Below, piece after piece: positions 1,280-63,381 of a DNA stretch of 64,000 bases. Numbering within the stretch: the stretch's first letter is position 1; each line of letters starts with the position of its first letter. The notes beneath the pieces were generated by a model. That model made no database searches. It was not told where the DNA came from and saw only the letters and a program-made list of their open reading frames with translations. Made by a program: the position numbers and the translations under genes. The DNA lies in NCBI GenBank assembly GCA_951406725.2, contig OX597840.1:17546001-17610000 (forward strand). The letters run 5' to 3'. The stretch comes from Octopus vulgaris (taxonomy: Eukaryota).

Positions 1280-2490
1280 GTAAGTATATATTATATATTT
1301 ACATTCTTATAATGCTATACATTCTTACACAAACCAGTATATATAATATTTTCCATTATATCATTATACACTCTTACACAAACCTGGTTTACATAATAAA
1401 TTTTTAGTTCTTCATTATGTTCAACACACACAAACCACATACAGTAATGCTTCAATATAGAAGTTAATCTCTTCCTGATGATCACTCATAAAGCGAAAAC
1501 TTGTAAAGCAGAAATGACATTTTATGCCGTCACTTTGCTCTCTCTCTGTGTAGATATGTCAGAACCAGTGTTGCCACATGTTGTGATGTTGTCACACACA
1601 TAAAATGGCTGTTTAACCTTTTTAGATTTATTATAAAATAAAACTTGTAAACCCAGGGTCTTGTAAAGTGGCTCTTTGTAAAGTGAGGGGTTACTGTATA
1701 TAAATTAATTGTGGCATTATTTTTATAATTCATTGAAACAAAATCAGTAAATTTCAACAGAAATATGATAACAAAAGGTTTAGTCTTTCAGAGACAGATC
1801 TTATAAATTATTCACCTGTGTCAGTGTCACAAAAAATGCACCCAGAGCATAAAGTGTTTGGCATTAGAAAGGGCATTTGGCCATAGAAATTATGCCAAAG
1901 CAGACAGCTGGTGTCTCCACAGCTCCCCAGCCGTCAAGCCGTCCAACCCATGCCAACATAGAAAACAGACATTAAATGAGGATGATAATGATGACAGTCT
2001 TTTTATAATTCTATTTATTTTGGGAAGGCAGGGAGCTAGCAGAAATCTTAACTTGCTGGCAAAATGCTTAGCGGTATTTCATCTGCCTTTATGTTCTGAG
2101 TGCAAATTCCGCTGAGGTCGACTTTGCCTTTCATCCTTTTGGGGTCGATAAATAAAGTACCAGTTGAACACTGGGGTTGATGTAATTGACTAGCCTCCTC
2201 CCCCAAAATTTCAGGCCTTGTGCCTAGGAATGAAAAGAATTCTGTTTATTTTGGGGCAAAATCCTATTATTTTGTATCTTTTCTCTTTTTAGACTGGGGC
2301 CATGAATTTTTAGTGAAATGAATTGACCCCAGAACTTATTTTTTAAGCCTGGTACTTATTCACTTATTCTATGTTTTTTTTGCTGAACTGCAAAGTTAGG
2401 GGTGTGCAAACACACTAACACCAGTTGTCAAGTGGTGATGGGGGGGACAAATGCAGACACACCCATAGACATATATATATATATATATAT

Positions 2491-2760
2491 ACTAGCAGTA
2501 TCGCCCAGCGTTGTGGTTTGTTTAGACCCTTTAGAATTGGAATTTTTGAAAAGTAAAAATTTGGCAGTGTGTAGCTTGTTATTCTCTTTAAGTGAAATAC
2601 ACCGAAAAATGGCGACACAGCAGGCAAAAGTTCGTAAAAAATAGGGATTTTCATAGAAAAAAGGCACCTTTTTGATGTAAATAATTTTTGGTGTTAACAA
2701 GGTCCGATTTGAATTTTTTCTTCTACGGAAGGAAGAGTTAGCGTTCTTCTATCATACTCT
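2491..2760 (-). mobile_element. Helitron-like repeat (second copy 11365-11740)
   Basis: Two homologous copies; minus-strand end ..CAACGCTGGGCGATACTGCTAG with a subterminal hairpin; TCTCTATTTATA 5' end in the second copy. Confidence 0.6.
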
Positions 2761-2836
2761 CATATATATATGTATATATGTATATATATATATATATATA
2801 TATATATATATATATATATATATATATATATATATA

Positions 2837-4334
2837 TTGATAAAACGGTAAGATAACAAAAGAATGAAAGAGACCTCAATATTATGTAAATAGAGGAAAT
2901 TTATCTATACAATATGTTACATTACTCGGTAGTCAAGATAAAACTCTGAGTTTCAGATGCCGAAGTGGAAATCCACAACACCATCTCTTCGGTTATCTGG
3001 CTATTTGAAAACGTTATGAAAAAATACCGTTAAAAATGAAGGAAATTACTCTGTTATAACTCTGCTTTGCCTGCGTACTTATACATCGCTCGCATTTTTC
3101 GTCATAAAAATTATATAAAAATACATAAAAATATATAAAAATATATAAAAATATATAAAATCTTCTTGGGACATAACACAGAAAGCATGTTCTATCCGTT
3201 TTCTTTAGGGGACCAAAAACGTAACAGAAATTTAGTCACATGTGGGCATGATCCGAAAAGCTCTGTCCTTGTATTTAGACATGTGGTAGGGTCTAAGCTG
3301 CTTTTCCAGATAAGCCATCTCTCCATGTCGCATAAACCACACCTTCCGCTGCCGTTAGTGTAGGGCTTACATCTGGCCAAAATCTTCCATTGTATGTTAT
3401 AATCGACACCTTTATCTCTTAAAGACCAAATATGATTGGATAATTGTGTCGCTTTTCTTTTGTTCCAGTGCCTAAAGCTCAAAGTGTGGTTATTGAACCT
3501 GGCCTTGAAATTACCCTCTGTCAGGCCCACGTATTTCTTCGTCGAAACGGTGTCTTTAGTGGTTATAGAGTTTACGGTAGCTTCATATATGATGGTCTTG
3601 GACATGCAAGCTCCATTTAGCGGGCACAATTCTTTATTCCTGCATGAACAGCTGTTTTCTTCTTGTGTTTTTTGTATGTTATGATTGATTATGTTTTTAA
3701 AATTGGTAGTTGAACTAAAACTAATTTTTAAATTGTGTCTATTGAAGAGTTTCCTATAAGCATGGTTAACTGGAAAATGTCTATCTATCAGTGCTAGGAA
3801 ATATTTACCTATATTGAAGGCCACCTCAGGTGAGTAAGGGGGCGTAAACCAGATGACCTTCCTATTTCTATTATTCCTTTTCCTTACTGTTGGGCTGGTG
3901 ATAGGTGTATATTTTATATACTAACGGCAGCGGAAGGTGCGGTTTATGCGACATGGAGAGATGGCTTATCTGGAAAAGCAGCTTAGACCCTACCACATGT
4001 CTAAATACAAGGACAGAGCTTTTCGGATCATGCCCACATGTGACTAAATTTCTGTTACGTTTTTGGTCCCCTAAAGAAAACGGATAGAACATGCTTTCTG
4101 TGTTATGTCCCAAGAAGATTTTATATATTTTTATATATTTTTATATATTTTTATGTATTTTTATATAATTTTTATGACGAAAAATGCGAGCGATGTATAA
4201 GTACGCAGGCAAAGCAGAGTTATAACAGAGTAATTTCCCTTCATTTTTAACGGTATTTTTTCATAACGTTTTCAAATAGCCAGATAACCGAAGAGATGGT
4301 GTTGTGGATTTCCACTTCGGCATCTGAAACTGAG
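2837..4334 (-). mobile_element. 5'-truncated Penelope-like element with inverted duplication of its 3' end, inserted in (TA)n
   Basis: GIY-YIG C-terminus 3920->3192 (WFTPPY, CSC-x5-CPL, IY..KYVG, CGLC, LNTRTE..CPH); ~2950-3358 is repeated inverted at ~3920-4330. Confidence 0.9.
2936..2998 (-). ncRNA. Hammerhead-like ribozyme (CCGAAGA core variant) in PLE 3' region
   Basis: AGATAA-CCGAAGA-GATG..GTGGA tt TCCAC..CATC-T-GAAA-CTC A GAG-TT-TTATCT; stem I AGATAA/TTATCT. Confidence 0.6.
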
Positions 4335-4399
4335 ATATATATATATATATATATATATATATATATATATATACATATACATATATATATGACGATATA

Positions 4400-61008: not shown

Positions 61009-61119
61009 CCTGTTGGGAGTCAAGCCCACCTGTGTGAAATACAAATCCTTCCGAACAGAGGAATTATCTCTCCATTAAAAACGGAACCTTTTAATCTGAC
61101 TTTTTTCTCCAAGGAACAG
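61009..61119 (+). CDS. DLEC1: DLEC1-like exon
   Basis: PVGSQAHLCEIQILPNRGIISPLKTEPFNLTFFSKEQ; cAG / GTATTT. Confidence 0.9.
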
Positions 61120-61342
61120 GTATTTATGTCTGGGAGTGAGGTGGACCTGTGTTCCTTTTTTTCCTGTTTGGTTGTGGAGGATGTTGGGTTTATTTAATAT
61201 TAGGGAAAAGTCATAGTGGTGAGATGCTCCAGTATGGACACTGTCGAATAGGGCAAGAATAAAAGAACAGAGACCATGTCTTTGGAGAAAATTGATGCTG
61301 TTAACATACATATACACTCATATTTACATAAATGTTCGTGTG

Positions 61343-61630
61343 TCATCATCATCATCATCATCATCATCATTTAATGTCTGTTGTCCATGCTGGCATGGGT
61401 TGGACAGTCTGATCAGGGCTGGTAAGCTGAGGGGCTGCACCAGACTCTAGTCTGATTTCGCATGGTGTCTATGCCTGGATGCTCTTCCTAACACCAACCA
61501 CTCTGAGAGTGCAATGAGTGCTCCTATGTGTCACTGGCACAGGTGTCAGTTTGCATGACACCAATATCTACGATTTACCTTGACTCAATGGTCTTCTTCT
61601 CAAGCACGTCATTTATCACTGCCTCCAAGC
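61343..61630 (-). mobile_element. RTE 3' end fragment (similar pieces at ~1840-1995, 5440-5560, 27130-27270, 55560-55790)
   Basis: (CAT)n TTAATGTC..CCATGCTGGCATGGGTTGGA signature. Confidence 0.75.
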
Positions 61631-62915
61631 GGCCCAGTCTTCTGAAGGTGTTTTTTATGAGTCACGCACCAAAACATTTGGTATTTTGTTCACATTATGT
61701 TATCATTATTAATAGTTTTCATCCACCAAGGTCAATTTTGCCTTTTGTCATTTCGGGGTTGATAAATTAAGTACCAGTCAAGTACTGGGGTCGATGTGAT
61801 TGATTGTCCCCCACCCAACAAAAATCGAGGCCTTATCTCTATAATTATTCTTAAGGAGGCAAGCTGGCAGAGTCATTAGCACACTGGGCAAAATGCTTAG
61901 TGGCATTTCATCCATTTGCACAATCTGAGTTCAAATCCTGCCAAGGTTCACTTTGCCTCTCATCCTTCCAAGGTTGATAAACTAAGTACCAGTGAAATAC
62001 TGGGGTTGATGTAATTGACTATTCCACTTCCCTACAAATTTCAGGCCTTGTGCCTTTAGTAGAAACTATTATAATTATTATTATTATTATTATTATTATT
62101 ATTATTATTATTATTATTATTATTATTATTATCATTATTATTGTTATTATTATTATCATCATCATTATCATCATTATTATCATCATCATTATTATTATTC
62201 ATTTTGTTCATCATGTACAAGTACATTTGTATTCCTCGGCGTAAAATAAAAACAAAACTCTTTCGCACCCAAAGTAATATGTGTGACAGAGAGAGGGAGG
62301 GAGAAAGATGAACAATTTAAAATAAATAAATGATTTAAAATAAATATATTGTAATTGTTGTGTGAGAAAGTATATATACTATGATTATAAAATATAGTGT
62401 CTTTCAAAAACATCCTAAATTTGAACACTATATCTCGTATTCAAGAAAAAACAAAACATTTTACATTTTATTTTTTATGAACGTCGTCACTTACTCTCTC
62501 TCTCCCCCTCTCTCTATCTCTCACTTTGTCTTTCCCTTTTTTGTTCAGACGCCATGAAACTCTCTTCCACTTTTCTTTATTTTGTTTTTTTTTTGTTAGA
62601 CGGCATCAAAAAGCTATGGCTGAAAATAGATTTTTATGAACGTCATCACTTACTCTCTCTCTCCCTCTCTTTTTGTCTTTCCTGTGAAAGTTGACAAAAC
62701 CCAAATAGGATGTTGATGAATGTCCTCCTAAAATTTGAGCAACATGCGTGCTAATTTGTGGATGTGCATATATATATATATATGCATAGATATATGTATA
62801 TGTATGTAATATCTACGTATGTATGTATGTATTATGTATGTATATGCAAAAGGCTGCTTTAAGGGTATTGGAAAAGGTCTGGTTGGAGGTCCAAACTTCC
62901 AAGTTCTTTTACAGG

Positions 62916-63381
62916 TATTTACAACTGATGGATATTTATTCTTATCTTGTTTGTTGTTAACATAACATTTCGGTTGATAAACCCTCCAGCTTTCATTAGG
63001 TGTCTTGGCCAAATTTTGAACCTGGGTTCTCATTCCTAAGGTATTTTTCATTGTTATTATTATTATCATTATTATTATTATTATTACTACTATTATTATT
63101 ATTATTACTACTATTATTATTATTATTATTATTATCATTATTATTATTCAGGTCACTGCCTGGAATCAAACTCGGTATCTTGGGCTCTTAACCACTACAC
63201 CATATGCCCATAGGCATGAGAACCCAGGTTCAAAATTTCCCTAAGACACCTGATGAAGGCTGGAGGGTTTTATCAGCCAAAACGTTGTGTTAACAACAAA
63301 AAAGATGAGGACAAATATCCATCAAATGTAAATAATGTAAATAATGTACATAATTCCTCATCTTTTAAATATAGAACTGTA
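62916..63381. mobile_element. Second copy of the hammerhead fold-back element, with 12-bp TSD
   Basis: Flanked by TTCTTTTACAGG (62904-62915) and TTCTTTTGCAGG (63382-63393) inside a mariner-derived repeat. Confidence 0.8.

Follow-up and report, generated by a model that had tools for sequence, protein, structure and literature searches.

The 64-kb stretch of the Octopus vulgaris genome analysed here (contig OX597840.1, positions 17,546,001 to 17,610,000; hereafter the window) carries many short repeats with hammerhead ribozyme-like motifs, which an earlier reading made from the letters alone (the sequence-only reading) took for a dense population of non-coding, often fold-back elements that form a candidate retrozyme-like system driven by Penelope and Naiad proteins. 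We find that most of the sites it listed are worn end repeats, or pseudo-long terminal repeats (pLTRs), of ordinary Penelope-like elements (PLEs). One group of copies, here called family A, stems, judging from its sequence, from a PLE whose end repeat starts with a tRNA-derived piece, likely a promoter of the type found in short interspersed elements (SINEs).

Hammerhead motifs in the window and across the genome

The sequences of the 13 full sites named by the sequence-only reading do lie at the positions it gave. Type I hammerheads were recognised at two of them, 30364 and 52413, by a relaxed descriptor (core C[TC]G[AT]NGA, an extra A optional, stem III a perfect palindrome), while the rest proved to be mutated in the core or stems. 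Under a strict type I descriptor with the core CTGANGA, for which shuffles gave a mean of 0.01 matches at a score of at least 11, the site at 30364-30446 was the sole intact one in the window. An Rfam scan of the window returned no hammerhead among the best 150 of its 275 matches, only microsatellite-driven noise. The relaxed descriptor was also applied to evenly spaced stretches that sample 1.4 Mb of the genome (2.8 Gb in 227 contigs), in which it gave 38 matches, 7 of them from one tandem locus, against 0, 0, 1, 0 and 0 in five shuffles; decoy cores gave 0-1 matches in 0.8 Mb. The predicted enrichment over shuffled sequence therefore holds genome-wide. The claim of a dense local population does not, since the density of the window (2 matches in 64 kb, or 31 per Mb) is about that of the sample (27 per Mb), and the window is thus not unusually rich.

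The genome was searched with six of the named sites, taking the 19-29 best copies per family together with the window's own copies; family G was read from sampled loci. The majority sequences of families A (sites 35300 and 62916), B (30364), C (47036), D (21669) and F (25541) are complete type I hammerheads, each with a perfect but different palindromic stem III. Copies differ from their own family majority by a median of 3-8% (4-11% for the copies in the window), and core positions vary by 0.5-3.1%, compared with 3.5-6.8% elsewhere (CpG excluded). At seven of 11 loci a (TA)6 run is found no more than 200 nt away, against 30% of window positions. At the level of families, and across the genome, the hammerhead motif class is real, and the window's copies are mostly decayed, so that the original observation is partly confirmed. 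The weak hammerhead at 1468 was rejected as a chance match or mutation in a DNA-transposon-like repeat: its family core reads CTGGAGA and it lies inside a TA-flanked element with terminal inverted repeats.

The interpretation placed on these sites was partly supported. As proposed, they are minimal hammerheads of the PLE type in which stem III is palindromic, and PLE machinery has spread them as several families. The parents found are not Naiads: those of families A, F and G, together with the window's own coding PLEs, carry a C-terminal endonuclease, and Naiads, which have an N-terminal GIY-YIG domain and remnants in cephalopods, are described as being without canonical hammerheads in a source that also describes inverted PLE copies and tails (PMC8557442). 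The sequence-only reading knew of no description of such fold-back families in cephalopods. Single and opposite-strand hammerheads were reported in 2014, when the pLTRs of metazoan endonuclease-bearing (EN+) PLEs were described as carrying minimal hammerheads, with single motifs and opposite-strand pairs from truncated PLEs found genome-wide (PMC4209133). The hammerhead finding as stated is largely a known phenomenon. Like EN+ PLE pLTR hammerheads, the octopus families have a palindromic stem III and an additional base following A9; in both, a genome holds many variable families, motifs are mostly single, opposite-strand pairs are spaced by 100-700 bp, one end carries a tail of 30-40 nt, and microsatellites are the targets (PMC4209133, PMC8557442). 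They differ in the tRNA-derived start of the family A pLTR and in core variants (a fixed T at position 6 in family G and often C at position 4 in families F and H) that were not met in the available parts of those two sources. The presence of many PLE hammerheads is, as a broad observation, ordinary. Repeat annotation of O. vulgaris lists 190 PLE families making up 6.83% of the genome, with ribozymes unmentioned in the accessible part of that report (PMC13282606), so the present families may already exist there as consensus sequences.

The coding parent and tRNA-like head of family A

Two fold-backs in the window belong to family A:

62908-63100, minus strand: inverted arm with pLTR and decayed hammerhead, without the terminal ~40-nt tail, plus the (AAT)n start
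63149-63212, minus strand: tRNA-Arg-like head with A and B boxes and an internal deletion
63207-63381, plus strand: right arm with the start region of the open reading frame (ORF), a hammerhead with mutated GAAA (core near 63250), and the terminal tail
35296-35484, minus strand: inverted arm of the second fold-back
35509-35719, plus strand: the final 10 nt of the head, where the fold-back turns, followed by (AAT)n, a hammerhead with mutated stem III (core near 35587), and the tail

In family A, the parts follow one another in the order reverse transcriptase (RT), GIY-YIG, stop codon, 29-nt spacer, 75-nt tRNA-like segment (the head), (AAT)n, ATG, hammerhead, 52 codons and tail. The ATG lies at +106 and the tail ends at +261, the pLTR overlapping the start of an ORF whose frame is open. 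A coding end joined to the family A unit was first seen at an unbiased locus (L097), and in 29 further coding copies of the parent the head was found in 27 and the tail in 25. The majority hammerhead is complete, and 8-9 of 29 copies pass as such. The parent protein combines an RT (RVT_1, E 1.6e-9) with a C-terminal GIY-YIG region (GIY-YIG/HTH_animal look-alikes at 0.96), and homologues 55-61% identical to it bear PF00078 and/or PF26215. From the absence of a zinc-finger linker (PMC8557442) and from its motifs, this parent is probably of Penelope/Poseidon type.

The tail is an open frame that continues in frame for 40 codons at one locus (L003), and the continuation beyond the tail is itself a repeat (40 of 40 scored candidates match, with 311 candidates in all). 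A 47-nt pattern for a second ORF-start copy returned the known locus only. Because the tail frame runs on into repeated coding sequence, the family A unit appears to be the element's 5' end, present a second time at the 3' end, and this in turn would place the head where a promoter is expected.

The head, which the sequence-only reading had not reported, comes shortly after the stop codon, possesses A and B boxes and is collinear end to end with genomic tRNAs. When compared with 32 tRNA genes (from 34 listed places), it matched tRNA-Arg(TCT) best (z 8.5), followed by Arg(TCG) (z 7.0). It is thus a tRNA-derived segment with both boxes at the 5' end of the unit, yet not foldable as a tRNA. The 262-nt unit is without a run of four Ts, which is at most compatible with transcription by RNA polymerase III (Pol III). 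By alignment, no head was found in 9 of 11 distant metagenome relatives (28-43% identity; two repeats of L372 excluded). Contigs in runs X16 and X17 bridge the ORF and the head; their depth climbs from ORF to tail with its main step within the head, not at the head start, and was left unused, as it is not a measure of copy number and the reference copies are mutated. Two side observations concern the same family. At loci L008 and L020, family A tails are joined via (AAT)n to the (AAT)n end of another retroelement, and at G000:C2:16238377-16239143 the ORF-end word of the parent occurs six times at ~150-nt spacing, a PLE-born minisatellite.

Copies of family A and their likely origin

The 1.4-Mb sample contains 21 family A insertions (24 listed clusters, three merged as split parts of one insertion), which by extrapolation suggests a copy number of about 40,000; the 12,696 exact tail words found genome-wide are a floor, counted in arms. 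Exact 18-position words become rarer towards the coding end, from 12,696 for the tail to 6,097 (+31) and 4,670 (+2) in the head, 1,061 in the spacer (-25) and 863 at the ORF end (-66). The count therefore drops 4.4-fold over the 27 nt from head start to spacer, with neighbouring steps of 1.3-fold and 1.2-fold, and this step is if anything understated, because the spacer word fits the parent copies better (14 of 28) than the head word does (8 of 28). In addition, 7 of the 11 unbiased insertions that reach the head start end within 6 nt of it (0.56 expected, P 2e-7), two of them without an inverted arm.

An inverted arm was present in 10 of the 21 unbiased insertions, with the 30-40-nt tail at one end only. 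The first 100 tail-word places held 16 divergent pairs, counted by eye, and no same-strand pair within 1 kb. These pairs lie 220-917 bp apart, a variability which argues that the inversion is mostly made at insertion and which does not sit with fold-backs as a fixed family, as had been supposed. The two ribozymes of a fold-back lie on opposite strands and so form no dimer in cis. Read-through transcripts of the fold-backs are predicted to pair their ribozymes away (-251 and -187 kcal/mol), and a two-strand fold of the family A motif, by minimum-energy folding without a core model, paired stem II between strands and gave no dimeric hammerhead. Solo and fold-back copies of the pLTRs of the window's own coding PLEs occur elsewhere too.

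The explanation we consider probable is that family A copies are solo or truncated products of a PLE with internal RT initiation and a tRNA-like 5' head. The RNA would begin a few bases before the tRNA-like segment, and RT would prime internally at the tail, next to AT-rich nicks, and copy back to the 5' end, yielding a solo unit of ~260 nt. A small hairpin, which spans the head start, would allow self-priming of the cDNA (or template switching) and so give rise to head-to-head arms, while earlier RT stops would leave shorter copies. On this scheme most genomic copies would be dead, with the ribozyme buried wherever there is an inverted arm.

The short copies might instead be a true SINE, in which solo units are transcribed by Pol III and copied in trans by PLE proteins independently of full-length elements. 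This we regard as possible, though doubtful. The tRNA-like head with its A and B boxes, the sharp 5' start, the lack of a terminator in the unit and head words 5 to 7 times as frequent as ORF-end words would all fit, as would a junction form with a deletion that recurs in about 9 of 30 loci (a query-biased count) and the 3' end common to the short copies and their autonomous partner. However, the same head is present in the coding parent, and internal RT initiation on the parent RNA gives the same product; moreover, the partner's sharing of the head as well departs from usual SINE-LINE pairs (LINE, long interspersed element). We offer only tentatively the bolder proposal that a coding PLE acquired, as its 5' end, a Pol III promoter derived from tRNA-Arg, and that the resulting ~260-nt promoter-ribozyme unit was amplified to tens of thousands as a Penelope-mobilised SINE, with, at the extreme, the whole coding element being a Pol III transcript.

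We think it unlikely that an old SINE, inserted into the PLE untranslated region and inert there, accounts for the tRNA-like piece, with the 5' pile-up due only to a hairpin at which the cDNA halts or folds back. A tRNA head followed by (AAT)n does resemble a simple SINE, the fold-back junctions fit self-priming on a hairpin at about -7 to +5, and 5' ends cluster in families without a tRNA head as well. Against this, L137 and L148 begin at the head without any inversion, L099, L136 and L302 begin there with inversions joined elsewhere, and no head was found joined to another body in the 1.4-Mb sample.

Taken as a whole, the sequence of family A looks like that of a PLE with a captured Pol III promoter yielding SINE-like copies. 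Several results weigh against such a reading. ARAGORN found no tRNA in 35 family A loci and Rfam none in two family A copies, and the absence of a T4 run from the 1,198-nt ORF majority is not significant (P 0.41). No full-length element was seen end to end, the in-frame continuation having been read in L003 only, and this continuation gave no usable Atlas match. The 5' ends of families G and B, which have no tRNA-like head, are also clustered, so that clustering marks a point at which the RNA starts or stops and not the polymerase; the hairpin at the head start could by itself stop RT. Beyond family A, no continuous coding parent was found within 1.5 kb of copies of families B, C, D and E, loci L203 and L226 were rejected as coding parents of F and D (the sequence is discontinuous), and family C looks non-autonomous.

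Among the closest systems described is the anole Poseidon PAc, whose ORF begins within the hammerhead and whose RT was shown in vitro to start copying internally, at the tail (PMC11167929). Family A shares with it the domain order, a hammerhead and tail overlapping the ORF start, AT-rich targets and, probably, an internal RT start; no tRNA-like head is mentioned in the available part of that source, and the promoter was assumed to be of the TATA-less LINE type (PMC2377424). The sharp 5' step supports, from genomic copies, what was found in vitro, namely that PLE RT initiates within its RNA. Cassandra, Helenus and Ajax (TRIMp3) likewise have a small-RNA-derived Pol III promoter in their terminal repeats, proposed to come from SINE insertion; these are non-autonomous long terminal repeat (LTR) elements, for which a long LTR stretch shared with an autonomous partner was judged unlikely (PMC10886601). 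Unlike them, the family A coding PLE itself carries the tRNA-like segment.

A further parallel is provided by the SINE-like hammerhead repeats of schistosomes (Sm-alpha and Sj-alpha). These are short repeats with a Pol III-type promoter followed by a hammerhead, as in family A; they are tandem, carry active ribozymes, and have no coding partner named in the available part of their description (PMC6765202). In contrast, family A is dispersed, arranged head-to-head, and forms the 5' end of a coding PLE. Octopus tRNA SINEs called OK, OR1 and OR2 were reportedly described by Ohshima and Okada in 1994, with OR1 and OR2 said to derive from tRNA-Arg. OR1 and OR2 have since been cited as CORE-SINEs (PMC4824008, PMC4758252). 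Compared by description, these two are tRNA-headed like family A, but the family A succession of head, (AAT)n and PLE ORF start leaves no room for a CORE domain. A literature search by title and opening of the abstract, which did not cover repeat databases such as Repbase, Dfam and SINEBase, turned up no mention of a PLE with a tRNA head.

SINEs have LINEs as their known partners, and promoters derived from small RNAs have been described in LTR elements of the non-autonomous kind. A PLE with a tRNA-derived promoter in its own end repeat would, if true, extend both ideas to a third retrotransposon class, and PLE transcription starts would become easy to test. The sharp 5' step may also offer a simple origin for the many solo hammerheads of animal genomes. 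The tRNA-headed PLE is the first subject worth following up, ahead of family C and the variant core of family G.

Other families, retrozyme candidates and neighbouring elements

The remaining repeats of the window with hammerheads, or once taken for them, are as follows:

30314-30517, plus strand: family B, the only fully canonical hammerhead in the window (30364-30446; strict descriptor)
46749-47272, plus strand: family C, a non-coding permuted monomer (~434 nt) present in about 1.2 units, its hammerhead decayed (47036-47108)
46483-46717, minus strand: family C inverted arm
21088-21995, minus strand: family D copy, a long AT-rich region and a hammerhead with C3 mutated; inverted piece at 22001-22094
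44397-44764, minus strand: family E copy, decayed hammerhead (named site 44493)
19440-19587, plus strand: family E fragment (half motif at 19465)
25347-25799, plus strand: family F, a truncated coding-PLE end with a decayed hammerhead, family core CCGACGA
52389-52545, plus strand: family G, a coding-PLE end with a variant hammerhead core
10798-11323, minus strand: family H copy, decayed hammerhead (11055-11102)
41000-41180, minus strand: decayed hammerhead of a barely sampled family, layout like family B (named site 41073)
15480-15872, no strand assigned: family K fold-back, with only the second half of a hammerhead-like core (15664)
47291-47357, minus strand: family M end fragment, second half of a hammerhead (47328)
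1440-1698, no strand assigned: not a ribozyme; TA-flanked element with terminal inverted repeats, like a miniature inverted-repeat DNA transposon (MITE), family core CTGGAGA

Coding parents were found for two of these families. In family F, a GIY-YIG end lies upstream of the repeat and is continuous with it in 2 of 19 copies. In family G, an endonuclease end lies ~720-770 nt upstream, continuous in two loci (L292 and L076); it was recognised as a putative endonuclease by its motif and has no Pfam match. The family G core resembles CTGTNGAA; position 6 is T in 30 of 31 copies, stems and palindrome being kept (52413-52448 in the window), and the family amounts to ~19 insertions per 0.8 Mb. No coding parent was found within 1.5 kb in 29 copies of family B. 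Family E extends at least 650 nt in the 5' direction without a coding match; core and palindrome are kept in this family (sites 44493 and 19465), and 0 of 19 copies pass the stem II test, failing at the stem II base. In family H the hammerhead looks complete in a few copies, judged by eye, and no coding parent was seen, no search with H as a family having been made. A further short family, abundant and with the core CCGACGAA and a stem II of 4 bp (L101, L120, L142, L160, L271 and L273), lies outside the window's list.

In its strong form, the sequence-only reading would make all or most families independent non-autonomous retrozymes that cycle through dimer-cleaved or circular RNA. Retrozymes of the non-LTR kind are defined as tandem units with at least two hammerheads (PMC7229834), and a 2026 preprint ties tandem retrozymes to PLEs (bioRxiv 10.64898/2026.07.22.740005). 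Their type I hammerhead, non-coding 150-450-nt unit and PLE pLTR origin (same sources, in the parts available) are matched by family C and by locus L281. The 3' end of family C joins its own 5' start with no ORF between them, giving the permuted ~434-nt monomer, and copies of more than one unit occur at L064, L078, L079 and L089. The covariation expected of such a ribozyme was found here in part: compensatory changes were seen in the stems (CG to TA in 5 of 29 copies and AT to GC in 6 of 29), probably all within one subfamily. At L281:2500-4800 (G000:C1:20.00 Mb), monomers of ~359 nt form a true tandem array, partly inverted. Each contains a type I hammerhead that looks canonical, and by its sequence the array is apparently a textbook non-LTR retrozyme in the octopus genome. 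A second family C fold-back, at 41256-41685 of the window, was absent from the earlier list.

As an account of all or most families, we nonetheless judge the retrozyme proposal quite improbable, even with family C, the L281 array and the lack of a parent within 1.5 kb for families B, D and E in its favour. A non-coding 150-450-nt unit joined head to tail was found in family C and not in A, F or G. In longer copies of these three families a GIY-YIG coding end precedes the repeat; their short copies are pLTRs, solo or truncated, with inverted arms of the sort usual for PLE insertion, and not retrozymes. Solo pLTRs are the case that the sequence-only reading had itself named as refuting it. No tandem direct units with two or more hammerheads, and no same-strand hammerhead repeat, occur in the window or among the first 100 family A places, and the predicted pairing in fold-back transcripts would keep the ribozyme from acting. 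Thus, the proposal fails for those families that could be traced, and of the distinct non-autonomous families envisaged only family C fits as a non-autonomous PLE derivative.

Other elements were also noted in the window. On the minus strand, a coding PLE at 13800-19433 lies between two identical 154-nt pLTRs (13800-13953 and 19280-19433), whose identity points to recent insertion; in the hammerhead-like motif of this PLE, stem II starts with a T-T mismatch and stem III is looped. The region 2840-4335 holds the truncated endonuclease end of a PLE, which has an inverted repeat of 344 nt and a hammerhead-like motif with a CCGAAGA core and belongs to a family common in the sample. Exon-like peptides were seen in microsatellite ORFs at about 28380-28480 (minus strand) and at 51051-51240, 51802-51960 and 58585-58760 (plus strand), the listed strands disagreeing; they may resemble a ciliary protein with an ASH/Ig fold, for example DLEC1 or Hydin. 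Should the fold-backs be intronic, long double-stranded RNA would result. Finally, a broken LINE fragment with RT and PHD-like parts occupies 39180-40190 on the minus strand.

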